Counted from the first letter of the stretch, positions 2,649 to 56,384 are shown. The stretch: 64,000 nucleotides of DNA from Alphaproteobacteria bacterium (GCA_015062535.1 SUUK01000001.1:399055-463054), one strand, 5' to 3'. Program-made: numbers and translations. Notes: a model not told the origin generated them from the sequence alone.

Positions 2649-3506
2649 TTATGCAACCTTAAAGTTTGCCATAAGCATAGACAATACTTTATCAAGAGTT
2701 CCCTTTAGGTCTTTACGTTCAACAACAATATCAACCATACCATGCTCTTTCAAATATTCAGCAGTTTGGAAACCTTCTGGTAATTTTTCACGAATAGTTT
2801 GTTCAATAACACGTTTACCCGCAAAACCGATTAAAGAGCCACGTTCTGCAATATGAATATCACCAATCATTGCAAAAGAAGCAGAAACACCACCAGTTGT
2901 AGGGTCAGTAAATATAGAAATATAAGGAAGTCCCTTTTCTTTCAATCTATTAATAGCCGCAGTAGTTCTTGCCATCTGCATTAATGAGAGCATACCTTCT
3001 TGCATACGAGCACCACCAGATGCACTAGCAATAATAAGTGGGCAATTATGCTCATAAGCATATTCAGCCGCCGCAACAATTCCCTCACCAACAGCAGTTC
3101 CCATAGAACCTCCCATAAAAGAGAAATCCATAGCCACAACTACACTATCAATATCACTAACTTTACCCAATCCAACTTTAATAGCATCAAGTCCACCAGT
3201 TTTTTTACGATATACTTTAAGTCTATCAGTATAACGTTGAGTGTCCTTAAACTTCAATGGGTCTTCTTTAACCTGAGGTAAAACCATCTCAGAATAAATA
3301 CCATTATCAAAAAGTTGCTTCAAACGTTTATCAACATAGAGTCTCAAATGATGATTACATTTTGTACATACATACAAAGACTGCTTTAATTCCTTAGAAA
3401 AAAGCATTTGACCACATTCTGGGCATTTTACCCACAAATCATCTGCAATTTCCTTTGGAGTTGTCTTTTTAATCTTTGGTCGAACAATATCTGTCAGCCA
3501 ATTCAT
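2649..3506 (-). CDS. accD: acetyl-CoA carboxylase carboxyltransferase beta subunit
   Basis: N-terminal Zn-ribbon CPECGQ..CTKCNHH, the carboxyltransferase core GGSMG and length (285 aa) match AccD. Confidence 0.9.
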   Translation of the reverse strand: MNWLTDIVRPKIKKTTPKEIADDLWVKCPECGQMLFSKELKQSLYVCTKCNHHLRLYVDKRLKQLFDNGIYSEMVLPQVKEDPLKFKDTQRYTDRLKVYRKKTGGLDAIKVGLGKVSDIDSVVVAMDFSFMGGSMGTAVGEGIVAAAEYAYEHNCPLIIASASGGARMQEGMLSLMQMARTTAAINRLKEKGLPYISIFTDPTTGGVSASFAMIGDIHIAERGSLIGFAGKRVIEQTIREKLPEGFQTAEYLKEHGMVDIVVERKDLKGTLDKVLSMLMANFKVA

Positions 3507-20668: not shown

Positions 20669-21090
20669 GCCCTCTCGGACGGTTTTCTATATGGTCGAAA
20701 CTAGAGGATTGACTTCGTCGAAACTTAACGGTTGCTTCGCACCGGCATACTCCCGTCTGCCTACCGTTTGTTTTCAAACCACCTTTTTCGGAGCTTCAAA
20801 TCCCATCACTTCATGATAATAAAACAAAAAGCCCACCACAAGGGCAGGCTCTTTGTTTTATGGTCGAGGTTAGTAAGATAAAACCGAAAAAAATATACAC
20901 TTTTTCTTACTAACTTTCTGCATGAGTTTAATCTACTTCAGAATTTTGTAATTTGCAATACCTTTTTTTATTTTTTTGACTGATACCTTGGATTGTTCGT
21001 AACTATCTAAGTCTGATGAATGCCATTTTTTTGAATAAGTTTTTTTATTTATTTTCAATAAATTACAAAATAATCAAAAAATTTTTTATC

Positions 21091-21130
21091 TGTTTGGTAC
21101 TTTTTTGCCTCCTTGTGGATTTTTACCTTT
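21091..21130 (+). promoter_or_regulatory. conserved 38-nt phage promoter/operator motif, copy 1
   Basis: GTTTGGTACTTTTTTGCCTCCTTGTGGATTTTTACCT lies about 15 nt upstream of an RBS. A near-identical copy sits at 24097-24135. Confidence 0.4.
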
Positions 21131-21145
21131 CGAAAGGAGGTCAAA

Positions 21146-21310
21146 ATGACCCTAGCAGAAAATTTAGTAAAAACCATACTGCCGGAATTTTTAACATATT
21201 TAGATAAGTTAGAAAAAGGCGAAATAGTTGAGAAAGAACTGGATATAAATAAAAATCCAAGCATTCATAGCGATGTAAACAAATCGAAAGGAGTCGAAAA
21301 ATGCAGTTAG
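21146..21310 (+). CDS. small phage protein preceding DUF2924/serine recombinase (candidate regulator or directionality factor)
   Basis: RBS GGAGG lies 6 nt upstream of the ATG at 21146. The 54-aa ORF overlaps the next gene by 10 nt. Confidence 0.3.
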   Translation: MTLAENLVKTILPEFLTYLDKLEKGEIVEKELDINKNPSIHSDVNKSKGVEKCS

Positions 21311-21708
21311 CACTAGAAATCGCAAGATTAGAAACACTTCCGCTTACCGAATTACGTCGTTTATGGAAGCATTACTTTAAAACCGATTGTGAAATCCAAA
21401 AAAAGGATTATTACATTTCAAGAATTGCCTATCGAATGCAAGAACTGGAATTAGGCGGTTTGAAAGCATCAACTAAAAAGATGATTGCAGAAATTTGTGA
21501 GTCAACAAAAAAGCATAAATCACTACCGCCATATGGAACACGAATTGTTCGTGAATATAAAGGTGTTGAACACTCAGTCAAAATAGTTATGGGAGGCTTT
21601 GAATATAATGGAATGAAATATAAAAGCCTATCCAGTATCGCAAAATTGATAACCGGTAGCAAAATATCGGGAAACTACTTTTTTGGATTAGAACGATATA
21701 AGGAGTAA
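21301..21708 (+). CDS. DUF2924-family protein (commonly paired with large serine recombinases)
   Basis: C-terminal ..SLSSIAKLITGSKISGNYFFGL is characteristic of the family. The gene is coupled to the downstream recombinase (TAA-ATG at 21708-21711). Confidence 0.5.
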   Translation: MQLALEIARLETLPLTELRRLWKHYFKTDCEIQKKDYYISRIAYRMQELELGGLKASTKKMIAEICESTKKHKSLPPYGTRIVREYKGVEHSVKIVMGGFEYNGMKYKSLSSIAKLITGSKISGNYFFGLERYKE

Positions 21709-21710
21709 AC

Positions 21711-23411
21711 ATGGAACAGAAAATAATCAGATGTGCAGTATACACTCGTAAATCAACAGAAGAAGGGTTAGACAAGGAGTTTAACACTTTAGAAGCTCAA
21801 CGAGAGGCTGGTGAAAACTATATCAAGAGCCAAAAACAACAAGGTTGGGTCTTGCTTCCACAGCATTATGATGATGGTGGTTATAGCGGTGGCACATTAA
21901 AACGTCCTGCCCTTCAAAGACTATTGTCTGATGTGCAAAATGGTAATATTGATATGATTGTTGTTTATAAAATTGACCGCTTAACCCGTTCTTTGCTAGA
22001 CTTTTCACAACTGATTAAAACGCTTGATGCACATAATTGTTCTTTTGTTTCTGTTACACAAAATTTTAACACTTGCGATTCCATGGGTAAACTGACCTTG
22101 AACATTTTATTATCGTTTGCCCAATTTGAACGAGAAGTAAGTGCTGAACGTATCCGAGACAAAATTGCCGCCACCAAGAAAAAAGGTATGTGGACTGGTG
22201 GTAGCGTTCCCCTTGGCTATGATGTTAAAAATAAAAAATTAGTAGTTAATCAGGAAGAAGCAAAAATAGTTCGCTATCTATTTGAAGAATATTTACGTTG
22301 TCGGTCAGAAGTTCAAGTGAGCAGAAACGCCAACGAAATGGGCTATCACTCTAAAGCTCGTAAAGTTCGTAATAGTCAAGGAGAAGTTGCCTTGTCTTTT
22401 AACCATGCGATGATTAATAATTTACTCCGTAATCCTATTTATATTGGAAAGATACCTTACAAAACAGAATTGTTTGATGGACTACACAAAGCGATAATTC
22501 CTATGGATTTGTGGAATCAAGTACAAGAATTAAAAAGGCTTAACCGCCGAGAACGTTTTGCCCCCTCCCGTTCTGTTAAAAATTCATTATTAAAAGGCCT
22601 TGTAGAATGTGAATGTTGCGGCACAATGACACCTACCCGCTGCAAACGAAAAAACAAATATTACGAGTATTATACTTCATCAAAAGCTGTCAAAGAAGGT
22701 CATCATTTATGTAGAACAGGAAGTGTTCCAGCAGGTGAGTTAGATAGATTTGTTTTGGATAAAGTTAGAAATGCATTCAAATCTCCAGAAATTATTCAAG
22801 AATTAGTGCATCAAATTAAACCGTACAAACCTGAGTATGGCGTAAGAGAAGTTTTTGACATTGTGCAGTCGGTTGATAAAGTTTTTGAGCATTTTGAACC
22901 GGCAACATTACAGTCAATCATAAAACAACTTGTTGATAAAGTCATTATACACAAAGGCAAAGTTGTCATTCGATTTAACAGTTTTGGCGTATCGTTGCTT
23001 GATGATAATATTAAATTTCAAAATGAGTTTAATAAAAAAACACTAGAATTTACTTATAATGTTACGTTGGCTCGTAAAAGAGGTCGAGTAAAAATAGTCA
23101 ATCCTCTTCCGTCAGAAACACCTGAAAAAGACGAGATTTTAATAAATGCCGTATCCAAAGCCTTTAAATGGCAAGATTTGTTGGAAAGAACAAATTTAAC
23201 AATTGCAGAATTAGCCCGAAGAGAAAAAATTGACAGGACATATATGGGACGCATTTTAAAACTATGTTCTCTTGCTCCCGAAATTATTAATGCAATTATA
23301 GAGGGAAAACAACCACGATTGCTTAATTTACAAGTCTTTACCAGAAACCAAATCCCTCTTTTATGGAGTGAACAACTTAAAAAATATGGTTTTGTTTACG
23401 ATTCGCACTGA
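21711..23411 (+). CDS. large serine recombinase (phage integrase, resolvase/invertase N-terminal domain + recombinase domain + zinc ribbon)
   Basis: N-terminus VYTRKSTEEG..QREA has the catalytic Ser/Arg context. It is followed by a recombinase domain and Cys clusters (CECCG..C) over 566 aa. Confidence 0.9.
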   Translation: MEQKIIRCAVYTRKSTEEGLDKEFNTLEAQREAGENYIKSQKQQGWVLLPQHYDDGGYSGGTLKRPALQRLLSDVQNGNIDMIVVYKIDRLTRSLLDFSQLIKTLDAHNCSFVSVTQNFNTCDSMGKLTLNILLSFAQFEREVSAERIRDKIAATKKKGMWTGGSVPLGYDVKNKKLVVNQEEAKIVRYLFEEYLRCRSEVQVSRNANEMGYHSKARKVRNSQGEVALSFNHAMINNLLRNPIYIGKIPYKTELFDGLHKAIIPMDLWNQVQELKRLNRRERFAPSRSVKNSLLKGLVECECCGTMTPTRCKRKNKYYEYYTSSKAVKEGHHLCRTGSVPAGELDRFVLDKVRNAFKSPEIIQELVHQIKPYKPEYGVREVFDIVQSVDKVFEHFEPATLQSIIKQLVDKVIIHKGKVVIRFNSFGVSLLDDNIKFQNEFNKKTLEFTYNVTLARKRGRVKIVNPLPSETPEKDEILINAVSKAFKWQDLLERTNLTIAELARREKIDRTYMGRILKLCSLAPEIINAIIEGKQPRLLNLQVFTRNQIPLLWSEQLKKYGFVYDSH

Positions 23412-23423
23412 TTTTTTATAAAA

Positions 23424-23476
23424 TTGACATAACCGTATGTATTGGATTCCATACGGTTATATGCGTTTGACATAAC
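23424..23476. promoter_or_regulatory. operator-like inverted repeat flanked by direct TTGACATAAC repeats
   Basis: AACCGTATG-TATTGGATTC-CATACGGTT is a 9-bp perfect inverted repeat. TTGACATAAC occurs at 23424 and 23466. Confidence 0.4.
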
Positions 23477-23593
23477 ATATTATTTTTATTTAATTTTCCT
23501 ACGGAAAAAATTATTTAATCCTTTCGTTTATATAGCCGAAAGCATATCATTTTTTTGTAACTATCCCCCAAAATTTTTACGAAAGGATGATAT

Positions 23594-24094
23594 ATGCCGA
23601 AGCAAAACAGCGGTGGTCTTCCACCAAAAATTGAAATGTATATTCGTATTCATGTGGCGAGTTTATATAAAACAAATTTGTTTCAATACCAAGAGCGAGA
23701 CGACCTACTTCAGGAACTCGCTCTTTTTTATATTGAAAGGTTTTACAAAAAAGATGAAGACATACCAGATGAGCTACTTTTCATTGCCCTAAAACGAAAG
23801 GCACAGCAAATACTTCGCTCCCGACTACTTAGCATGAAGTCGGGAGTTTTTTTTAATGAGTCATTAAATCGTATGTCAGAGGAAAAAGGATTTGAACTTA
23901 CTTCGAAGTTTTGTTTAGAGGATTTAGAAAATGAAATAGATTTAAGATATTTATTAAAAATGCTCTCAGAAAAAGAACAGGAATTTATAAAACGACTATT
24001 TCAAGGAGAAAAATTAAATGATGTTTATCAATCACTTAAAATGTCAAAAGGAACACCAAAAAGGATTGCTGAGAAAATAAAGAAAAAAATTTGA
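23594..24094 (+). CDS. phage-encoded sigma-70-family (ECF-like) sigma factor
   Basis: 166 aa with a region-2-like segment (LLQELALFYIERFY) and a C-terminal region-4 HTH (LSEKEQEFIKRLFQGEKLNDVYQSL). Confidence 0.5.
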   Translation: MPKQNSGGLPPKIEMYIRIHVASLYKTNLFQYQERDDLLQELALFYIERFYKKDEDIPDELLFIALKRKAQQILRSRLLSMKSGVFFNESLNRMSEEKGFELTSKFCLEDLENEIDLRYLLKMLSEKEQEFIKRLFQGEKLNDVYQSLKMSKGTPKRIAEKIKKKI

Positions 24095-24096
24095 TA

Positions 24097-24135
24097 TCGT
24101 TTGGTACTTTTTCGACCTCTCGTGGATTTTTACCT
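24097..24135 (+). promoter_or_regulatory. conserved 38-nt phage promoter/operator motif, copy 2
   Basis: CGTTTGGTACTTTTTCGACCTCTCGTGGATTTTTACCT matches copy 1 at about 31 of 38 positions and lies upstream of the 24170 gene. Confidence 0.4.
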
Positions 24136-24169: not shown

Positions 24170-24460
24170 ATGAGAAAATCGAAAAATACTGTTTATGAAA
24201 TGATTAAAACCATTCCAGTTGATAAGTTAATGGCCATGGATACCAACCAACTCATCTTTTGGGAGAATGAAGTACGTGATGAAATTGATGAGTTGAAGGA
24301 AATCGGCCGTCAAAAAACTCGTGCTTACCGCAGAGCCTTGCTTTCACTTAAATGGCTTCAAGGTATTCGTCGAATTAAAACAAGTGCTGAATTTAAGAAA
24401 ACAGGAAAGATGCCTCCTAAGACAGTTATCATGGTCGTAGATCTTTCAAAGGAGGACTAA
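24170..24460 (+). CDS. hypothetical phage early protein
   Basis: 96-aa ORF, basic. Confidence 0.3.
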   Translation: MRKSKNTVYEMIKTIPVDKLMAMDTNQLIFWENEVRDEIDELKEIGRQKTRAYRRALLSLKWLQGIRRIKTSAEFKKTGKMPPKTVIMVVDLSKED

Positions 24461-25138
24461 ATGGATAGAAAAACGTCATTCGTGTTTTATCCTGCGGAGT
24501 TCCTTGCTTCTGTGTATAATTTTACAAATTGTGAATGTGCGACATTAATTAAGGCTCTTTGTGAGTACGCTCTGTACGGAAAAATCACAAAAAATTTATC
24601 GGAAAAAGTTCAAGACCGTTTTAATTTTTTGCAAGCAGGCATTGATGAAAACAATCGCAAATATTTTGAAACCTGCGAAAAACGTAAGGCTGGCGGCTCT
24701 AAAGGTGGTCGTCCAAAACGAGAAAAAGAAAACCTTAAGGTTTCTGAACCACCACCAAATTCTGCCAACGAAAAACCTGATAAGGAGAAGGATAAGGATA
24801 AAGGAGATGAAGAGTCCGGATATGTTTTTATTAAAAATAATAAAAATAAAGGGGCTGAAAATGTGGATAAGTCAGGATATGTCGGTGCTCCGAGCGTTGA
24901 AGAAGTGGCTGAATACTGCAAACGAAGTGGATATACAATTGACCCTGTAGCCTTCGTTCGGTGGAACGAAGAACGTGGTTGGATGAACGGCAAGAAATAC
25001 ATTGCCGTTGACTGGCGTAAAGCCGTCCGGAAATGGTTTTGCAAGGAAAACGGTCTCGCTTACTCGGAAATGGAGACTATGACGGACATCTGTCATGATG
25101 TGCTTAGCAAAGTAAAGGTGGTGCCGGATGAAAGCTAA
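24461..25138 (+). CDS. hypothetical phage protein, possibly replication-associated (DUF1376-like N-terminus; tentative)
   Basis: N-terminal FVFYPAEFLASV...LIKALCEYALYG is followed by a basic GGSKGGRPKREKE linker and an acidic stretch. Confidence 0.3.
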   Translation: MDRKTSFVFYPAEFLASVYNFTNCECATLIKALCEYALYGKITKNLSEKVQDRFNFLQAGIDENNRKYFETCEKRKAGGSKGGRPKREKENLKVSEPPPNSANEKPDKEKDKDKGDEESGYVFIKNNKNKGAENVDKSGYVGAPSVEEVAEYCKRSGYTIDPVAFVRWNEERGWMNGKKYIAVDWRKAVRKWFCKENGLAYSEMETMTDICHDVLSKVKVVPDES

Positions 25139-25556
25139 AACCATCGCAGAAATCAAAGCAAACTTGGAAACAGCCGCCTATGTGGATCGGTTGTTGCCGC
25201 CTGTCCGTTCTCCCAAATATCGGTGTTTGATGCCCGAGATTATATACACGCCGCAAGAAATGGCCCTGATGGACCGCCGACCGGTTCGACCCCGTCCAAC
25301 TCAGGCACAGGTCAGTTTATGGGAGACTGTCACTTTAGAATGGATACCACTTCTAGAAATTGATGAACGCCGCCTTGTTTGGAAACGGGCTAACCGAATT
25401 CCTTGGAAAATTTTATGCCGAGAATTTGGCATTTGCAGAACAAGGTTAATGCTCAAGTATGATAAAGCCATTGTAAAGATTGAGTTTTACCTAAAAGGAA
25501 AGGAAAAATGCAGAGTGCAAAAAATGAGTGGACACTTTCAAAAGAAATCGCTATAA
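25128..25556 (+). CDS. hypothetical phage protein with HTH-like C-terminus
   Basis: 142-aa ORF containing RIPWKILCREFGICRTRLMLKY. Confidence 0.3.
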   Translation: MKAKTIAEIKANLETAAYVDRLLPPVRSPKYRCLMPEIIYTPQEMALMDRRPVRPRPTQAQVSLWETVTLEWIPLLEIDERRLVWKRANRIPWKILCREFGICRTRLMLKYDKAIVKIEFYLKGKEKCRVQKMSGHFQKKSL

Positions 25557-25673
25557 ATAAGGGTATAATCGGGATGGTTCTACGTAATCGTCCCGTTTAT
25601 ACATTTTTACATATAGCATCCGGCTCGGCAGTTCATCTGTCGGGCCTTTTTTTATAAGCAAAAAGGAGAAAAG

Positions 25674-26675
25674 ATGAAAAAAACAGCAGAGTTCGTTTCG
25701 CTCGGACATCCGGACAAAACGGCCGACTATATTTCCAGTTATATCCTTGACCGTATGATCGCCCAAGACCCGGACGTAAAATACGCCGTTGAGGTTATGG
25801 TCAAAGACAACACCGTCGTGTTAGGAGGCGAAATCAAAGGAAAAGTTGTCCTATCAGATGTCAAAGAGTTCGTTAAAAATGCCCTGAGAGATATCGGTTA
25901 TGATGAAAAATACGCCGAAGTTTGGGGCAAAAATGCCATAGATGTTCGTAAAATCGAAGTCATCAACCTCATCGGTCAGCAGTCAGCAGACATCAACCAA
26001 GGCGTAGTAGCCAATGGTTGGGGCGACCAAGGTGTATTTGTCGGTTACGCTTGTAAAGGTGAAGGCTTGATTAACCGAGAGCTTTATCTCGCTCGTACCC
26101 TTAACAATGCCCTTTATATTAAGGCTCGTCAAAGCAAAAACCTTGGAATTGACATTAAAACACAGATTACCTTAAACGACTACGGCCGAATTGAAACGGC
26201 TGTCGTTGCCATTCCGATGAAAGAACCGGAAGATTTAACAGATTTTATCATTGAAACACTCGGAGAAAAGCCCGACAACATCATTGTTAACGGCACCGGA
26301 AGTTTCAAATTGCATTCCTCCATCGCAGACTGCGGCATTACCGGTCGCAAATTGGCCTGCGATTTTTACTCTACTGCCTGTCCGATCGGTGGTGGCTCGC
26401 CTTGGACTAAAGACGGCAGCAAGGCAGATGTAACCCTGAACATCTATGCTCGCCGTTTAGCTCTTCGTTATTTGGAAGATAACGACGAATGCTTTGTCTA
26501 TCTCTCCTCCTGCATCGGTCGAGCCGAACTGCCCAGTGCAGTTGTTAAAACAATCAAGTCAGGTGTCGAGACAAATACCGCCATCTCGGTGGCCAAAACC
26601 CCAATTGAACTGGCCGAAGAATTGGATTTAACAAAGCCGGTTTTCGCCCGTTTATGTCGAAATGGTTTGATATAA
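25674..26675 (+). CDS. divergent, shortened S-adenosylmethionine synthetase (MetK-like) encoded by phage
   Basis: Aligns with bacterial MetK across its length. Matching segments include SLGHPDKTADYIS (GHPDK), SADINQGV, GWGDQGVFVGYA (GAGDQG), DIKTQIT, ADCGITGRKL and IGGGSPWTKDGSKADVT. The catalytic His, Asp and Lys residues are conserved. At 333 aa it has lost part of the C-terminal domain. Confidence 0.75.
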   Translation: MKKTAEFVSLGHPDKTADYISSYILDRMIAQDPDVKYAVEVMVKDNTVVLGGEIKGKVVLSDVKEFVKNALRDIGYDEKYAEVWGKNAIDVRKIEVINLIGQQSADINQGVVANGWGDQGVFVGYACKGEGLINRELYLARTLNNALYIKARQSKNLGIDIKTQITLNDYGRIETAVVAIPMKEPEDLTDFIIETLGEKPDNIIVNGTGSFKLHSSIADCGITGRKLACDFYSTACPIGGGSPWTKDGSKADVTLNIYARRLALRYLEDNDECFVYLSSCIGRAELPSAVVKTIKSGVETNTAISVAKTPIELAEELDLTKPVFARLCRNGLI

Positions 26676-26693
26676 TCCCCCGAATTTGCCGGA

Positions 26694-27074
26694 ACATATC
26701 ATACTAACGACATATAATCCCGACTTTTGGGCAGAATTGCCGGATAGTATCATACTATGCGAACATATAACATTGTATGTCGGTGTTGCCTCACATATAA
26801 GACATATATATGGGCTATTCTGACGGAATATCGCCCTATATTGCACATATATCGGACATATATTCGCATAGATTTGCATATATGTTCGCTATGATAAACC
26901 ATAGCCCGACGGTCCCGTCACAATAGGCATATAGTATCATACTATCAAGACGGTATCGAGGTTTTGAGCCGGATTTGACGGATAGTATCATACTATCAAC
27001 ATACTCTCTCGGGTTTTGGCCCGTTTGGGTGGTTAGTATCATACTAACGAGATACTATCTCGGACAGCCCTGAG
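26694..27074. repeat. array of 17-bp palindromes GATAGTATCATACTATC interleaved with ACATATAT repeats
   Basis: Full palindromes at 26743-26759, 26931-26946, 26991-27007 and 27042-27058; partial copies at 26694-26709 and 27061-27073. ACATATA(T/A) occurs four times between 26792 and 26890, enclosed by the GGGCTAT/ATAGCCC inverted repeat (26811/26901). Confidence 0.7.
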
Positions 27075-27260: not shown

Positions 27261-28529
27261 ATGGAGAATTACATGGAATTTAATGAAAAATATCCTACCG
27301 AAAAGCTCATCCCATATGCCCGAAACTCTCGGACACATAACGATGAACAAATCGCCCAAATTGTGGCAAGCATTAAGGAGTTCGGTTTCACGAACCCAAT
27401 CCTGATTGGAGATGATGATGTTATAATCGCCGGTCATGGTCGCCTTATGGCCGCACAACGTCTTGGCATGACAGAGGTTCCGGTCATCAGGTTGCCTCAC
27501 TTAACCGAAACACAACGCCGGGCCTTGGTCATTGCCGACAATAAGATTGCTCTGAATGCCGGATGGGATGAAGAGATGCTCCACCTTGAAATGGAAGAAC
27601 TCTCGGAATTGAACTTTGATTTGAACCTGCTTGGGTTTAACCCTGATGAGTTGAATGAAATCCAATTATTCGGTGAGGAAAAGTCGTCCGGTAACACAGA
27701 TGATGACGAAGTTCCGGAAGCACCTGAGGAAGCCATCACAAAACGTGGCGACATTTGGCAACTGGGCCGACACCGTCTGATTTGTGGCGATACCACCATG
27801 ATAGATGACGTTAAAAAGCTAATGCAGGACGAAGTCGCCGATATGATTTTCACAGACCCTCCATATAATGTGAACTATGGTTCCACCATGAAAGACAGCA
27901 TACGCTATCATGCCGGTTCACTCGGTGGCCGAAAGATTATGAACGATAACCTTGGCGAAGGTTTTGCTCAGTTCCTGACGGATAGCTTATCCAATATGAT
28001 GATGTATTGTAAAGGTGCGGCCTATGTATGCATGAGTTCATCTGAACTGCACACCCTTTATAACTCGTTCATCAATGCCGGTGGCAAATGGTCGACCTTC
28101 ATCATTTGGAAAAAGAACACCTTTACCCTTGGCCGAGCTGACTATCAGCGACAATATGAGCCTATTCTTTACGGTTGGAATGCCGAACAAAAACATCATT
28201 GGTGTGGTGACCGGGATCAGGCAGACGTTTGGGAATACAATAAACCGGTCAAAAACGACTTACACCCGACAATGAAGCCGGTTGAACTGGTGGAAAGAGC
28301 TATAAATAACAGCTCTAAAATCGGGAATATCGTTTTAGATGGTTTCGGAGGCTCCGGCTCGACGCTGATTGCGTGCGAAAAGACGGGTCGTTCTGCCCGA
28401 TTAATTGAGCTAGATCCGAAGTTTTGTGACGTCATCATCAGGCGTTGGGAGGAATATACCGGTAACAAAGCCCAACTTATTGAAAATAAAGCAGAAATAA
28501 TCGAAAATGATGCAGAATTAACTGGATAA
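27261..28529 (+). CDS. ParB-like nuclease domain fused to beta-class N6A/N4C DNA methyltransferase
   Basis: N-terminal ParB/Srx fold (GHGRLMAAQRLG) is followed by a methyltransferase with DPPYN (motif IV) preceding LDGFGGSGST (motif I). Length is 422 aa. Confidence 0.85.
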   Translation: MENYMEFNEKYPTEKLIPYARNSRTHNDEQIAQIVASIKEFGFTNPILIGDDDVIIAGHGRLMAAQRLGMTEVPVIRLPHLTETQRRALVIADNKIALNAGWDEEMLHLEMEELSELNFDLNLLGFNPDELNEIQLFGEEKSSGNTDDDEVPEAPEEAITKRGDIWQLGRHRLICGDTTMIDDVKKLMQDEVADMIFTDPPYNVNYGSTMKDSIRYHAGSLGGRKIMNDNLGEGFAQFLTDSLSNMMMYCKGAAYVCMSSSELHTLYNSFINAGGKWSTFIIWKKNTFTLGRADYQRQYEPILYGWNAEQKHHWCGDRDQADVWEYNKPVKNDLHPTMKPVELVERAINNSSKIGNIVLDGFGGSGSTLIACEKTGRSARLIELDPKFCDVIIRRWEEYTGNKAQLIENKAEIIENDAELTG

Positions 28530-28608
28530 ATTTCGAATAACAAGCAACAATGTAATTGTAAGGAAAGGCAGAGAAAGCCTTGAAAAACAAGAACAAAAGG
28601 AGCTTAAA
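28481..28608 (+). promoter_or_regulatory. conserved promoter-leader element, copy A (contains ATGCAGAATTAACTGGATA and a conserved RBS CAAAAGGAGC)
   Basis: About 80% identical over roughly 125 bp to 29231-29359. The core is shared with the inverted copy at 31107-31128. Confidence 0.5.
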
Positions 28609-28914
28609 ATGAAAACAGTTAAAACCTACTTAGTACGCAAACCGAGTGACTTAGAAGAAGTCATGGAGTTAACCAAAAGATACGGCAACGAAGCAACCGA
28701 AGTTAAGGTCGCCGAAACCATCCGCTTAGACGAAGAAGCTTATAAAGCGGTTTGTGAAAACCCGGTGGCCGATTACGGGTTTTTAACCGGCAAAGGCGGC
28801 TACGATGACGACGGGATGCGACAGGTCATCGCCTTAACCTGCAAGGGCCACAAAACGCTTTACGCCGATCCTTCAGGCTCAGATTACTGCCGTTACTTAG
28901 GGATTAAACAATAA
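28609..28914 (+). CDS. hypothetical small phage protein
   Basis: 101-aa ORF behind element copy A. Confidence 0.35.
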   Translation: MKTVKTYLVRKPSDLEEVMELTKRYGNEATEVKVAETIRLDEEAYKAVCENPVADYGFLTGKGGYDDDGMRQVIALTCKGHKTLYADPSGSDYCRYLGIKQ

Positions 28915-29221: not shown

Positions 29222-29230
29222 TAAAAATTA

Positions 29231-29359
29231 TTGAAAAACAAGCACTTATTTGCAAAATAAATGCAGAATTAACTGGATATAATTCGAATTCCAAGCAATA
29301 CTGTAAGTGTAAGCAAAGGCAAGGATAGCCTAGCAAAACCTAACAAAAGGAGCATTAAA
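29231..29359 (+). promoter_or_regulatory. conserved promoter-leader element, copy B
   Basis: See copy A; the core motif is at 29261-29279. Confidence 0.5.
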
Positions 29360-29572
29360 ATGGCAAAAGAAAAAAAGAACATCTTACAGACCTTAATCGC
29401 CTATGAGCTACACCGAGGCGAAGTTGAGGAAGTCTTGATAAAATTCGGATGGGTTCGCAAAGATGCCTATTTTATGGAAAGCGAATTATACTGCTGGCTT
29501 GAAAGAGAGCCTTCAGACGAAGACATCAAAAAGGTTTTAACTGAAATCGGATACGACGTTAGTAAATTATAA
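29360..29572 (+). CDS. hypothetical small phage protein
   Basis: 70-aa ORF behind element copy B. Confidence 0.35.
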   Translation: MAKEKKNILQTLIAYELHRGEVEEVLIKFGWVRKDAYFMESELYCWLEREPSDEDIKKVLTEIGYDVSKL

Positions 29573-30686: not shown

Positions 30687-31046
30687 TTACTGGATTGTTT
30701 CGGGAGTTTCATCAACCTCGGGTGCGACAGCAATCAGTCGGTATCTGCGAACCCCGTCTTTCTTTTCAGACGTAAGTGTGGCTCCGACTTGTTTACTTGC
30801 CAAGACTGACATGGCCCCTCGGACGGAGTTTTCTTTCCAACCGAGTTTATCTGCCAGTTCCTTAATGGAAACGCCTTCTTCCCTTGTCAGCATGACGGCC
30901 ATCATTGCCGTTTTGAATTGCTTGGAAGTGTTTTTAATGTCCGTATCCGGTGATGTTATCTCATTGAGCGTTTGGGTCAGTTTGTTGCCCAAGTCTTCAA
31001 GGGTTATAACATCGGCTGATTTGGTTTTGTTTTTTTGTGTTGTCAT
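30687..31046 (-). CDS. DUF3489-like winged-helix protein, antisense to phage late genes
   Basis: Start assigned to the second Met (MTTQKNKTK) at 31044-31046. It is preceded by an inverted copy of the conserved promoter-leader core at 31107-31128. The protein contains VSIKELADKLGWKENSVRGAMSVL. Confidence 0.4.
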   Translation of the reverse strand: MTTQKNKTKSADVITLEDLGNKLTQTLNEITSPDTDIKNTSKQFKTAMMAVMLTREEGVSIKELADKLGWKENSVRGAMSVLASKQVGATLTSEKKDGVRRYRLIAVAPEVDETPETIQ

Positions 31047-31142
31047 CTTATAAGTCCTTTCATTGATTAGGTTTAACACAACACAATGAATGCTTGGATT
31101 TACAATTATATCCAGTTAATTGTTGCATAAAAGGGAAAATAA

Positions 31143-35513: not shown

Positions 35514-36671
35514 CTATAAAGGTTCAACATCCGAAGATAATAGGTCTGTATATTTTTGATAAGTATATATTTGTCCCCATTTTTTTTCGGAATTATTTAC
35601 CAAAATCCCTAAGTCAATTAAATGATTTAAGGATTTTATGACGGTTGGTTTTGTACTTCCTATCATATTGATAATTTCAGAAACGGTAAGCATAGGTTTC
35701 TTTTGAAATGCTGAAAACACTTTCAAAGCAGATTCTGATGCTCGACCGAGAGTTTTTATCTGCTCAACATCTGCTGAAAAGATATTTTGAATATTTATAA
35801 GTGTTTTTTTAGCATCATTTGCCGTTTCAATAACACCTTCTAAAAAGAATTTAATCCAATTTTCCCAGTCTCCATCTTTACGAACACCATTGAGAGCATC
35901 ATAATACAGGGTTCTATTCTTTTTGAAGAATAAACTCAGGTATAAGAAAGGAGAATCCAGCACACCTTTTACACATAAGAAAAATGTAATTAAAAGACGA
36001 CCAAGTCTTCCATTTCCATCAAGAAATGGGTGAATTGTTTCGAACTGTACATGGATAAGAGCAGCTTTGATTAAATTTGGAATATTATCTTCATCATTCA
36101 TAAAAATTTCCAAATCTCCTAAAACAGACATGAGTTTTTCAGGAGGAACAGGCACAAATCGAGCATTACCAGGTCGTGTTCCACCAATCCAATTTTGGGA
36201 TGAACGAAATTCTCCAGGAAGTTTTGTTTTTCCCCTAGAGTTAGTAAGAAGTATTTTATGAATTTCACGAATAAGACGTAACGACAACGGAAATCCTTCT
36301 TTGATGCGTTGCAACCCATGATTTAATGCTGCCACATATGAAGATACTTCTGATGCATCTGCAACAGGAACACCTTGTGTTTGTTCTGATTCATATCTTA
36401 AAAGATCATCCAACGTTGATTGTGTCCCCTCAATTTGTGATGATAATACAGCTTCCTTACGGACATACATATAATTCAGAACAGAAGGATCTATTGTTGC
36501 TTCAACAACACCGTTAAGTTCTCCGATGGATTGATTAGCTTTTTCTAATAAAACAGATACCTCTGATAAATCAATATCAGGTTTTGGTGGTAATGGATTA
36601 GGAATAAAGGCTTGATATGTTTCAGATGTTACTGAGCATTTCACTAAAGTTCCTTGAATATCACGTTTCAT
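35514..36671 (-). CDS. Fic-family protein (class II, N-terminal inhibitory helix), cargo gene
   Basis: Canonical FIC motif HPFLDGNGRLGRLL, inhibitory motif SSQIEGT ([ST]xxxE[GN]) N-terminal, and a C-terminal winged-helix region. It is on the opposite strand between portal and prohead protease and has lower GC. Confidence 0.9.
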   Translation of the reverse strand: MKRDIQGTLVKCSVTSETYQAFIPNPLPPKPDIDLSEVSVLLEKANQSIGELNGVVEATIDPSVLNYMYVRKEAVLSSQIEGTQSTLDDLLRYESEQTQGVPVADASEVSSYVAALNHGLQRIKEGFPLSLRLIREIHKILLTNSRGKTKLPGEFRSSQNWIGGTRPGNARFVPVPPEKLMSVLGDLEIFMNDEDNIPNLIKAALIHVQFETIHPFLDGNGRLGRLLITFFLCVKGVLDSPFLYLSLFFKKNRTLYYDALNGVRKDGDWENWIKFFLEGVIETANDAKKTLINIQNIFSADVEQIKTLGRASESALKVFSAFQKKPMLTVSEIINMIGSTKPTVIKSLNHLIDLGILVNNSEKKWGQIYTYQKYTDLLSSDVEPL

Positions 36672-40791: not shown

Positions 40792-40916
40792 AACTGAACG
40801 AGGTAATTGCTTATTGACGAACGTTGTTAGTGAGGAAATTAGCAATACCGGTTCAATTACGTGGATTTTTATAAAAATTTAAAATCAAACTCTATGAAAA
40901 CGAAAGGAAATCAAAG

Positions 40917-41858
40917 ATGGCTAGAGCTTATGGCTGGAATGCCAAATTATTAATTGCTGAAGAAAGTACCTACGGCACACTTTCGGACGGTAAATACACG
41001 CAAGTGCCGTTTGCATCAAGCACCATAGATAGTGAGCAAGGTTTGATTTCATCTAACGTGTTGGGATTGGGTCGAGACCCGACAACACCTTTTCAAGATG
41101 TCATCAACGTTGGTGGCGAACTGGCGGTACCGGTGGATTTAAGAAACATCGGTATTTGGCTCAAGGCTATCTTTGGGACACCAACAACAGCCGAAGATGG
41201 TAGTGCTTTTACGCATACATTTGAAAGTGGCAAGGTTTCTCTGCCCAGTTATACGTTAGAAGTTGGCTTACCCGAAGTACCGGAGTTTATTCGTTTCTTG
41301 GGTGTCAAGGCTGACAGCATCGCCTTTAACTTCGCCCGATCCGGTGAAGCCCAAGTAACGGTGTCCTTATTGGCCCAAGGTGAAACAGCCTCAAACACAA
41401 CTATTGCGGTAAGTCCCGATGTGCTTTCTTACACCCGTTTTTCTCAATTCCAAGGCTTCATCAAGTCTGAAGGTAAAGCATTGGCCAATATTACATCGGC
41501 AAGCGTTACTTACTCAAATAACCTTGAAAAGATTGAAACAATCCGAAATGACGGAAAAGTAGAAGCCATTGACTTGGGCGTTGCTTCTTTGTCCGGTTCG
41601 ATTTCGGTCAGGTATGGTAACAATGCCTTAATGGATAAGGCTCGTGCCGGTACTCCGGTTGATTTAGAACTCGGCTATCAAATTTCAGACACTCAAAAAC
41701 TGGTCATAACCTGTCATGAGGTCTATCTGCCCAAACCAAAACGCTCGGTGAATGGTCCGGGTGGTGTTGAGTGTTCCTATGACTTCCAAGGAGCCAAGGA
41801 ACCGACACTTGGCAAAATGATTACTGTTTCACTCGTTAATGATGTGGAGGCTTACTGA
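40917..41858 (+). CDS. major tail (tube) protein, gpV-like
   Basis: 313 aa in the position preceding the G/GT chaperones. Confidence 0.6.
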   Translation: MARAYGWNAKLLIAEESTYGTLSDGKYTQVPFASSTIDSEQGLISSNVLGLGRDPTTPFQDVINVGGELAVPVDLRNIGIWLKAIFGTPTTAEDGSAFTHTFESGKVSLPSYTLEVGLPEVPEFIRFLGVKADSIAFNFARSGEAQVTVSLLAQGETASNTTIAVSPDVLSYTRFSQFQGFIKSEGKALANITSASVTYSNNLEKIETIRNDGKVEAIDLGVASLSGSISVRYGNNALMDKARAGTPVDLELGYQISDTQKLVITCHEVYLPKPKRSVNGPGGVECSYDFQGAKEPTLGKMITVSLVNDVEAY

Positions 41859-55000: not shown

Positions 55001-55090
55001 CAAAAAGTCGCTTTTTGTTTGACTTTTCTATTAAAAATCGCAAGAATCTTAACGAGGTTTAATAGTTCAACATCAAAAAAGGAGTCAAAC

Positions 55091-55363
55091 ATGAACAAAA
55101 CTGAATACGTTGCTGCTGTTGCTGAAGCTGCAGGAATGACAAAAGCTCAAGCTGCTATTGCAGTTGATGCATCAATTGCCGTAATCACAAAAGCCTTGAA
55201 AAAAGGTGAACCTGTTCAAATCACTGGTTTTGGTACATTTGAAGTAGCAAAACGTGCTGCTCGTACAGGTCGCAACCCTGCAACAGGTAAAGAAATCAAA
55301 ATCAAAGCTTCAAAAGCACCTAAATTCAAAGCAGGTGCTGTTTTGAAGAAAGCCGTAAACTAA
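55091..55363 (+). CDS. hupB: HU-family DNA-binding protein (host)
   Basis: MNKTEYVAAVAE..GFGTFEVAKRAARTGRNPATGKEIKI is HU-like. The gene has its own TTGACT promoter and RBS AAAGGAG. The ORF-track start at 55019 is rejected. Confidence 0.85.
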   Translation: MNKTEYVAAVAEAAGMTKAQAAIAVDASIAVITKALKKGEPVQITGFGTFEVAKRAARTGRNPATGKEIKIKASKAPKFKAGAVLKKAVN

Positions 55364-55390
55364 TTATAAGTTTATAGTTTTCACTGTCTC

Positions 55391-55428
55391 AGAGCCCCAT
55401 TGGAGAAATCCTTTGGGGCCCTTTTTTT
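55391..55428 (+). terminator. rho-independent terminator after hupB
   Basis: GCCCCA..TGGGGC hairpin followed by CCTTTTTTTATTT. Confidence 0.6.
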
Positions 55429-55430
55429 AT

Positions 55431-56384
55431 TTACAACAGGTCATTTAATAAATTCATACATTTAATTTTTTGTTGCATATTGGCTCGGCCATATACATTT
55501 AATGTGAAAGATACATTTTTATGACCCAAAATTTCGGATAGAGATTTAACATCAAACTCCGGGATTTCTATGGCTCGAACTGCGAAAGTATGCCGAATTT
55601 CATGAAACTTAACACTACGCAGTTTGTTTTTTTTGAGGAAACGAGCAAAAAACTGTCTGTATGTTCTTGGCTCTGTTGGTTTGGTTTTCCCTGTTAAAAA
55701 ATATTGATTAGGGTTATCAGAATAATATTTCTTTATTATATTTATCAAAAGCGATGGAAGAGGAATAGTTCGGCACGAACTTGCTGTTTTAGGTGCTCCA
55801 ATGTAAACATAAGAAGTTCCTTTTACTTTATCATAAATTCGCTGAACAGTTCTTTGAATTGTTATGGTCTTATCAATAATAGAGATGTCTCGCATTTGTA
55901 AACCACACAGCTCACCAATCCGAACGCCAGTAAATAACGCAACTAAAATACCTGCAGTACGGCGGTTCATTTTCATGTAGATGGACTGTATAAGAGCCAA
56001 TTCTTCATCTTTTGATAAAGAAATCACTTTTTTTATTCCCAAATCTTTAGGGTATTCAATTAGGTCCCAATTTAGCATAGGAATAACTTGTTCTTTATAT
56101 GCAAAAATAAGGCATAAGCGTAAGACAAGTATAATATCTCGAATTGTTTTTACTGTTAAGCCTCCTTTTTTATCAAGCCTACCTTCATTATAAAGCGTAT
56201 TGATATAACATTGTATATCAGCTTCGGTGATGCTTAATATTTTCTTTTTACCCATTGATGGAATCAAATGGTTTTCAGAAATTAAAACAAAGTTAGCATA
56301 AGTCGATGGTGTAATCATCGGTTGCTTTTGTGTTAACCATGTTTTTACTAAAGTTTTAAATTGGGTATTTTGAGTTATTTTCAT
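55431..56384 (-). CDS. tyrosine site-specific recombinase (candidate hsdS invertase)
   Basis: 317 aa with the HEIRHTFAVRAIE (HxxR) box and a C-terminal catalytic Tyr (NVYGRA). It is adjacent to the inverted hsdS cassettes and is AT-rich like the host. Confidence 0.85.
   Translation of the reverse strand: MKITQNTQFKTLVKTWLTQKQPMITPSTYANFVLISENHLIPSMGKKKILSITEADIQCYINTLYNEGRLDKKGGLTVKTIRDIILVLRLCLIFAYKEQVIPMLNWDLIEYPKDLGIKKVISLSKDEELALIQSIYMKMNRRTAGILVALFTGVRIGELCGLQMRDISIIDKTITIQRTVQRIYDKVKGTSYVYIGAPKTASSCRTIPLPSLLINIIKKYYSDNPNQYFLTGKTKPTEPRTYRQFFARFLKKNKLRSVKFHEIRHTFAVRAIEIPEFDVKSLSEILGHKNVSFTLNVYGRANMQQKIKCMNLLNDLL

Follow-up and report, generated by a model that had tools for sequence, protein, structure and literature searches.

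Within a 64,000-nucleotide stretch of DNA from an Alphaproteobacteria bacterium (GCA_015062535.1, SUUK01000001.1:399055-463054; hereafter the window), a prophage carries an open reading frame (ORF) for a 166-amino-acid (aa) protein at 23594-24094 (+). A 37-nucleotide (nt) motif lies once upstream of the neighbouring recombinase operon and once between this ORF and an early operon. Comparison with related prophages points to the protein being a minimal sigma factor and to the two motif copies being its cognate bipartite promoters, a reading to which we assign a probability of roughly 0.7. A preliminary description of the region, made from the window alone, had likewise proposed a sigma factor gene between two copies of its own promoter, one serving the recombinase operon and the other the early operon. 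Its proposal is strengthened by what we found in relatives, where the upstream half of the motif (box 1) changes together with the sigma-4-like domain of the protein and the downstream half (box 2) together with the sigma-2-like domain.

The first motif copy (site A, or P_A), GTTTGGTACTTTTTTGCCTCCTTGTGGATTTTTACCT, occupies 21092-21128 (+). The second (site B, or P_B), GTTTGGTACTTTTTCGACCTCTCGTGGATTTTTACCT, occupies 24099-24135 (+), is preceded by a C at 24098 and starts 5 nt past the stop codon of the sigma-like ORF. When the 64 kb were scanned on both strands with up to three mismatches, only these two copies were recovered, with 0.00 expected from 100 shuffles, and a looser scan for box 1-N17-21-box 2 returned the same two convincing sites only. 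The repeat shared by the two sites reaches weakly further upstream, giving 62 nt at 77% identity. P_A is composed of box 1 (GTTTGGTAC, 21092-21100) with a T-run, a pyrimidine-rich spacer, box 2 (TGTGGA, 21114-21119) and the invariant TTTTTAC (21120-21126); P_B carries the same box 1 at 24099-24107, box 2 as CGTGGA at 24121-24126 and TTTTTAC at 24127-24133. Between the end of copy A and the ATG at 21146 are 17 nt, which include the ribosome-binding site (RBS) GGAGG; for copy B and the ATG at 24170 the distance is 34 nt. Downstream of P_A, all on the plus strand, lie a small ORF of 54 aa (59 aa in relatives; 21146-21310), a DUF2924 gene (21301-21708; PF11149, E = 2.7e-37) and the gene for a large serine recombinase (integrase) with an extra C-terminal ParB-helix-turn-helix (HTH)-like domain (21711-23411); a 183-bp gap then separates the recombinase gene from the sigma-like ORF. 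Downstream of P_B, the early operon (24170-26675, +) encodes a 96-aa protein, DUF6291 and DUF6362 proteins, a 49-aa ORF and an S-adenosylmethionine (SAM)-synthetase-like protein. The preliminary description had thus placed the two copies, their closeness to an RBS and ATG, and the gene order on either side correctly, its start coordinates for the copies being off by one.

Relatives were found by exact-protein look-ups and one genome scan, and the comparison covers nine related prophage lineages from gut Alphaproteobacteria. Gene order is kept in all relatives fetched. A motif search across related prophages had been suggested at the outset as a check, and in every relative sites A and B again share a motif, always a short, constant distance before an RBS and oriented with transcription, whose upstream half varies between phages and follows the type of the sigma C-domain. 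In the alignment of the sigma-like proteins the N-domain is almost invariant and the C-domain hypervariable, and in several phage pairs nucleotide identity falls sharply at the linker. Six C-domain types correspond to six box 1 variants, identical at A and B within a phage wherever both sites are available: GTTTGGTAC for type I (this window), TGAGTAAGA for type II (locus L001), ATGGTGAGA for type III (L010), TGGGGAGA for type IV (L012), TGGGACGAAAAAT for type V (L016 and L017) and TCAAGACGAAAAAT for type VI (L014). Types with look-alike recognition helices (II/III/IV and V/VI) pair with look-alike boxes.

Box 2 occurs before TTTTTAC in two forms, which track the N-domain subtype in 9/9 lineages: CGTGGA accompanies subtype alpha (KRKAQQILRSRL) and CCGGGC subtype beta (RRQANHLIRSRL), the two protein sequences lying at residues 66-80. 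All four combinations of IV or V with either subtype exist (IV/alpha, IV/beta, V/alpha and V/beta). The IV/beta promoter (P0026, locus L022) was forecast before it was fetched, and the look-up gave TGGGGAGA...CCGGGCTTTTTAC, as forecast. Mantel tests over the nine lineages correlated C-domain distance with box 1 distance (r = 0.73, p = 0.0004) and N-domain distance with box 2 distance (r = 0.84, p = 0.007), while the crossed comparisons gave r = -0.18 for the N-domain against box 1 and r = -0.05 for the C-domain against box 2. At the level of these sequence distances, the results are a double dissociation of the two domains and the two boxes.

The matching is seen at close range in a near-isogenic pair of loci, L016 and L001. 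The two are 99-100% identical over a stretch that begins about 360 nt before the small ORF and takes in the recombinase gene, the sigma upstream region and the sigma N-domain. The differences are confined to two places: a patch of roughly 30 nt within site A, covering box 1 and the spacer, and the sigma C-domain with box 1 of site B. Site B adjoins the swapped coding segment, so that linkage could account for the change there. Site A, however, is 3 kb away inside otherwise identical DNA, and its change is on that ground a matched one. In the same pair the recombinase, DUF2924 and the small ORF are 99-100% identical while box 1 differs at both sites, so that none of these can be the reader of box 1.

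This bears on whether the direct repeats could instead be recombination or mobility sites, targets of the serine recombinase or of DUF2924 that bracket a 3-kb recombinase-sigma cassette. Such a function would fit repeats that are direct, that flank a recombinase gene and that place site A within about 230 nt of the left prophage end near 20865. We nevertheless regard it as hardly credible, given that the supposed binding proteins stay the same where box 1 changes, that the motif variation tracks the sigma domains in the Mantel tests, and that in every relative both copies keep their transcription-oriented position shortly upstream of an RBS.

An action of the motif as RNA, in a shared 5' leader that controls translation or stability, is also very improbable. 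Copy A does fold with CCUCCUU paired to the Shine-Dalgarno (SD) sequence AAGGAGG (dG -16.7 kcal/mol, z = -2.4), and copy B folds better than shuffled sequence (z = -2.7). Other types, however, show no such anti-SD pairing at site A (L001, for instance, has TTTTGGTTTTCGGGC there), and the anti-SD hairpin of copy A was rejected for this lack of conservation. Moreover, the variable part of the motif changes along with a DNA-binding HTH domain rather than with any pairing partner, and an Rfam scan gave no family match to the motif, only two sub-threshold chance hits. Taken together, comparison across the lineages shows the motif to be a cis element whose two halves appear matched to the two domains of the sigma-like protein.

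We characterized the protein itself by profile searches and structure prediction. PHROG 1740 ('RNA polymerase sigma factor') matches it at E = 8e-9. TIGR02937 (sigma70-ECF, for extracytoplasmic function) is the top full-length NCBIfam match in 5/6 family members scanned, all of them under the curated cutoff, with E = 0.019 for the window protein and 2e-7 to 1e-5 for three close relatives. Across 45 aligned family members and profile-detected relatives, Sigma70_r2 was matched in 15/45, Sigma70_ECF in 17/45 and Sigma70_r4_2 in 17/45. When the extended profile was compared with solved structures, the ECF sigma factors SigH and SigE were matched over both domains (E = 1e-11 to 1e-10), and the alignment pairs ERDDLLQELALFY of the window protein with the region 2 signature DAEDLTQETFIRVF (the DxEDLxQE core-binding signature). 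In the AlphaFold2 model, of moderate confidence (predicted local distance difference test 65), three helices form the N-domain and four the C-domain, with a disordered linker at residues 84-114 between them. The 166 aa thus hold a conserved sigma-2-like N-domain (residues 1-115, with the linker at about 84-114) and a hypervariable sigma-4-like HTH C-domain (116-166), with no region 1.1 or region 3. The C-domains of relatives match Sigma70_r4_2, Sigma70_r4 and GerE, the GerE-like matches being weak and confined to residues 112-165. In Foldseek searches of the PDB the top matches were almost all full-length ECF sigma factors, with weak E-values, and the best was 9m7y_F, the ECF sigma factor chain of the phage phiEco32 gp79-dependent RNA polymerase promoter open complex (PMC12276001).

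These results have to be set against an ordinary LuxR/GerE-type activator or repressor, whose HTH would bind box 1 while a host sigma factor recognises box 2 and TTTTTAC. That several relatives match GerE agrees with such a protein. So does the family-only profile, which when run against PDB sequences found just weak LuxR/FixJ/NarL-type HTH matches, to the C-domain only (E about 0.2). The window protein also falls under every curated sigma model threshold, and the co-variation of box 1 with the C-domain would be accounted for equally. The N-domain, however, is neither a receiver nor a ligand-binding domain and aligns with sigma region 2, including DxEDLxQE; and the full-length fold matches are ECF sigma factors. 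Box 2, furthermore, co-varies with the N-domain and not with the C-domain, which is not expected of an activator acting through its HTH only. Box 2 is also unlike a sigma-70 -10 element, and a sigma-70 promoter and terminator scan, overall no better than on shuffles, placed nothing at site A or site B. We consider the LuxR/GerE-type explanation improbable and conclude from profiles and predicted fold that the 166-aa protein is a divergent two-domain protein of the sigma-70 family, named 'ECF-like' because curated family thresholds are not reached. The preliminary description's call of an ECF-like sigma factor gene between the two motif copies is upheld in this form by PHROG 1740, the extended profile and the fold matches.

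The family is small. Clustering at 90% identity gives 27 clusters, none of them less than 57% identical to the query, and a 50%-identity library holds 73 representatives; the sources of the family are gut metagenomes and metagenome-assembled genomes labelled Alphaproteobacteria, for example from roe deer and sheep colon. In a GenBank phage collection only two unannotated faecal contigs carry it, at 66-71% identity. Scans of IMG/VR gave neither relatives of the sigma-like protein (protein-pattern scan) nor a match to the motif (exact-pattern scan). For the prophage's tail-tube protein, by comparison, a search gives more than 1,150 homologues (E <= 1e-30); since these far outnumber the sigma family, the structural module is common to many phages, presumably with other regulatory modules.

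In the mechanism that we propose, the sigma gene would be expressed from its own promoter in the 183-bp gap, and its product would join host core RNA polymerase as a sigma factor. The sigma-4-like domain would read box 1 (GTTTGGTAC here) at about -33 to -25, and the sigma-2-like domain would read box 2, (C/T)GTGGA, at about -11 to -6. These positions, and with them the -35 and -10 elements, are deduced by taking the A or C of TTTTTAC as the start. Transcription would accordingly begin in or just after TTTTTAC, which at P_A means at or just after 21125-21127. The trinucleotide CGT is present in many ECF -10 elements. The holoenzyme would fire P_A, leading to the small ORF, DUF2924 and the serine recombinase, and P_B, leading to the 96-aa protein, DUF6291, DUF6362, the SAM-synthetase-like protein, an iteron region and a ParB-methyltransferase gene. 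With P_A driving the recombinase operon, recombination would be coupled to the switch. With the sigma gene itself downstream of P_A, read-through across a hairpin at 23429-23460 would add positive feedback on the sigma gene. This order of events and the feedback loop are our inference from the gene layout.

In the window, neither the three-mismatch scan nor the box 1/box 2 scan found a motif copy before the late genes, which would for that reason be reached by read-through or by another regulator. A possible third promoter was considered at 40859-40871 (CGTGGATTTTTAT), an intergenic site upstream of the tail-tube gene (40917-41858) that agrees with box 2 at 12/13 positions. It is without box 1 and poorly kept: L024-L026, with tail-tube proteins at 89% identity, retain ACGTGG alone, and in L027 the spacer is missing. 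We regard a third promoter here as improbable.

Several observations weigh against the sigma factor and promoter assignment. The window protein passes no curated sigma model, with no Pfam match even at E <= 5 and 14.6 bits for TIGR02937 against a cutoff of 42.9 bits. No anti-sigma factor was found near the sigma gene, and the 96-aa protein encoded downstream is unmatched in Pfam, PHROGs and NCBIfam; an anti-sigma factor beside the sigma gene is common, although not universal, in group 4 sigma factors. Only 13 nt separate GGTAC from CGT, a short spacing for an ECF promoter unless the -35 contact is made further upstream. Since box 2 has two states only, few independent events underlie its association with the N-domain, which could reflect host lineage instead. 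Finally, since there are two targets only and none before the late genes, the sigma factor would not be the sole driver of the lytic programme.

Similar arrangements are known from other phages. Xpf belongs to PBSX, a defective prophage of Bacillus subtilis; it drives the late operon, with structural and lysis genes, and is itself subject to an Xre repressor. It is a factor of about 20 kDa with sigma-2 and sigma-4 only (group IV), termed a 'positive control factor', which turns on phage operons after induction (PMC10141391). The protein described here resembles Xpf as a prophage-encoded sigma factor limited to these two domains. In contrast to Xpf, its putative targets are the recombinase and early operons, with no motif before the packaging, structural or lysis genes, no Xre/CI-type repressor was seen among the ORFs scanned, and the host belongs to the Alphaproteobacteria rather than the Firmicutes. 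The phiEco32 gp36 and Salmonella phage 7-11 gp47 proteins are likewise phage-encoded, highly divergent ECF-like sigma factors with phage-specific promoters; those of gp47 are bipartite (GTAAtg-N16-aCTA), whereas those of gp36 consist of a single element without a -35 (PMC8948821). In both of these virulent phages the sigma factor serves 6-8 promoters of middle or late genes, whereas here a temperate phage has two promoters only, which flank a sigma gene beside the integrase. With bacterial group 4 ECF sigma factors the protein shares two domains, the region 2 signature, a CGT-containing -10-like box (alpha) and a GG-containing -35-like box, and autoregulation by read-through from P_A would be possible. 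It differs from them in being phage-borne and below curated thresholds, with no adjacent anti-sigma factor found.

The combinatorics seen among the relatives have a laboratory counterpart. Engineered ECF chimeras in which sigma-2 and sigma-4 were swapped at the flexible linker recognise the matching -10 and -35 halves and are orthogonal to their parents (Rhodius et al. 2013, PMC3817407). The breakpoints in the phage family lie at the linker as well. Unlike those constructs, the phage combinations would have arisen by recombination among phages, and a promoter 3 kb away has been re-matched too. A limited literature search found no description of the sigma family or of a DUF2924/serine-recombinase/sigma module, and no natural phage case of matched shuffling of sigma domains and promoters.

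Known phage sigma factors are mostly late-gene switches of virulent phages or of PBSX, whereas the minimal sigma factor described here is encoded beside a temperate phage's integrase and appears to govern the recombinase operon and the early operon jointly, which would place a sigma factor at the top of a temperate phage's programme. The family offers a natural experiment on sigma modularity, with six -35-reading and two -10-reading domains in eight combinations, each with matched promoters, so that promoter specificity would be readable from sequence alone. More tentatively, and with the odds somewhat against us, we suggest that the specificity of the switch is carried by a positive factor instead of a repressor, and that recombination at the linker shuffles the modules while both promoters are re-matched, giving at least eight mutually orthogonal activation types. 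If so, these types would be the positive-control counterpart of heteroimmunity groups. A co-resident or superinfecting relative could then not trans-activate excision and the early genes, and the family would be a natural library of orthogonal minimal sigma/promoter pairs. Confirmation would give small orthogonal pairs from an unexplored source, a model for how regulatory specificity diversifies by domain shuffling and compensatory cis changes, and an entry to lysogeny control in abundant, uncultured gut Alphaproteobacteria.

We also inspected the 183-bp gap upstream of the sigma gene, where the preliminary description had noted a 9-bp inverted repeat overlapping duplicated boxes and had read it as a regulatory element of the sigma gene. 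The repeat is present, but its arms are really 11 bp and perfect: ATAACCGTATG-N10-CATACGGTTAT at 23429-23460, 18 nt past the recombinase stop codon. Arms of at least 11 bp are expected by chance 0.4 times per 64 kb, and 9-bp arms about 10 times. Among seven distinct versions the repeat is perfect in four (the window, L010, L012 and L014), with one compensatory C:G to G:C change, and degenerate in two (L017 and L022). In the L001 type it is replaced by a different, larger dyad whose right arm covers TGGTATATT. The dyad thus exists in three versions, AACCGTATG, AAGCGTATG and the L001-type TATACCAG...CTGGTATA. RNA folding gave -13 kcal/mol for the window, -14 kcal/mol for L012 (z = -4.5) and -21 kcal/mol for the L001 type (z = -5.9), and several relatives have a T-rich tail after the dyad. 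With the hairpin this close to the recombinase stop and with these tails, the element could as easily be the terminator of the recombinase operon as an operator, the pattern fitting both, and its assignment as an operator of the sigma gene is not sustained.

The duplicated boxes are likewise present, as two TTGACATAAC sequences at 23424-23433 and 23467-23476 (+), their sole occurrences, but the duplication is specific to the window phage type and not conserved in relatives, which carry the extended -10-like TGGTATATT at the position of the second box. These are the TTGACA boxes of the gap, and 23424-23476 is the region of the sigma gene's own promoter, which is presumably host-sigma-dependent. 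Alphaproteobacterial LexA and CtrA motifs are GTTC-N7-GTTC and TTAA-N7-TTAA, respectively; neither was seen in the sigma upstream region, which was inspected by eye with no formal scan. Further downstream, a leader of about 85 nt (23505-23593, +) is nearly invariant across all sigma types, with variable sequence upstream of it, and holds a short hairpin (CTTTCG...CGAAAG), a T-run and CCCCCAAAATTTTTAC. A conserved TTTTTAC at 23574-23580, immediately before the sigma RBS, was considered as an autoregulatory motif copy and rejected, the spacing to a TTTGTAAC-like sequence being 7 nt too short and the region not varying with sigma type.

A second conserved motif points to regulation beyond the sigma factor. 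Motif 2, AACTGGATATAA(T/A)-N8-10-(T)CCAAGCA, includes an imperfect dyad and a hexamer resembling TATAAT, and has four copies in the window, each about 40-60 nt upstream of a gene. Copy 1 (AACTGGATATAAAT-N-ATCCAAGCA, 21237-21276, +) lies inside the small ORF, about 40 nt upstream of the DUF2924 start. Copies 2 (28516-28546, +) and 3 (29267-29297, +) precede genes 28609 and 29360, and copy 4 (31091-31121, -) precedes a minus-strand gene for a DUF3489 winged-helix protein (30687-31046). Motif 2 is conserved in relatives of all sigma types. Because it is kept regardless of sigma type, it would be read by a factor other than the sigma-like protein, and that factor would then act on the DUF2924-recombinase genes, the two middle operons and DUF3489. 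Motif 2 may serve as promoter or operator or in both roles, perhaps for the DUF3489 protein, which is itself a candidate prophage regulator or repressor. Two of the copies, along with the leaders, fall within a direct duplication of 151 nt at 73% identity (28474-28624 and 29225-29375) that covers the regions in front of two successive small operons.

No HTH_3/XRE or CI-type protein turned up among the window ORFs scanned, and to that extent the earlier statement that no CI-like repressor is visible stands. Two minus-strand winged-helix genes are nevertheless present inside the prophage, the DUF3489 gene and one for a Fic protein with a C-terminal winged HTH (35514-36671). These two genes, together with a four-copy motif 2 that is independent of sigma type, speak against the self-contained circuit that had been envisaged, and the circuit is probably neither self-contained nor repressor-free.

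Motif 2 also raises the question of when the sigma factor fires. The sigma gene and its motif might form an immediate-early, autoregulated establishment module that works after infection, with repression exerted by the DUF3489 or Fic-winged-HTH protein through motif 2. The four conserved, sigma-type-independent copies of motif 2, of which one stands before DUF3489 and another before the DUF2924-recombinase genes, would suit this arrangement, as would the need of integration, too, for the recombinase. It differs from the switch proposed above only in the time of firing, and the sequence does not separate the two timings; we consider an establishment module possible but rather unlikely.

The prophage as a whole spans about 34 kb of the window and stands out by a GC content of 0.39-0.46, against 0.28-0.36 in the flanking host DNA. 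Its ends, taken from alignments to relatives and a shared CGAGGTT, lie near 20865 on the left and near 55055 on the right; the heptamer is found at 20865-20871 and 55053-55059 (within the regions 20861-20875 and 55050-55060). A host terminator hairpin (20819-20861) directly precedes the left junction. Relatives of the L001 type are integrated beside the 3' end of a tRNA gene (GGTTCGAGTCC...CCA; L001 about 3125-3170), whereas the window prophage sits at another junction, so that insertion sites vary within the phage family. The prophage encodes all the usual siphovirus modules, comprising terS, terL, portal, protease, decoration protein, major capsid, tail terminator, tail tube, chaperone, tape measure and endolysin genes with spanin-like genes. 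The phage is a siphovirus-type prophage, and its host is an uncultured gut alphaproteobacterium.

Among the neighbouring genes, the small ORF behind P_A has a coding-type substitution pattern in its N-terminal half, and its 3' half overlaps motif 2; speculatively, it is a candidate recombination directionality factor. The gap at 26680-27060, between the SAM-synthetase-like and ParB-methyltransferase genes, holds at least five copies of TAGTATCATACTA(A/T)C and a CATATA/ACATATA run. These iterons are probably the phage replication origin, and the gap measures about 590 to 850 nt among relatives. Just past the right prophage end, 55019-56384 contains a gene for an HU-family DNA-binding protein and a minus-strand tyrosine integrase gene (55431-56384), possibly the margin of another mobile element, or else a host Xer-like gene.

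Two intervals in the structural modules vary between relatives. In the head module, the window has the minus-strand Fic/DOC protein with its C-terminal winged HTH between the portal and protease genes, and a related phage has a ParE/ParD toxin-antitoxin pair between gpW and portal (L024 3584-4080, -), which points to a hot spot for cargo ('moron') genes. Between the tail chaperone and tape-measure genes, the window prophage is without an insert, and relatives carry an ORF without Pfam match (L024 11744-13090), a SLFN_AlbA_2 and HATPase_c_4 protein (L025 4579-5883 and L026 3864-5186) or an AAA_14/DUF4143 protein (L027 7194-8393); some of these inserts look like defence-type cargo.

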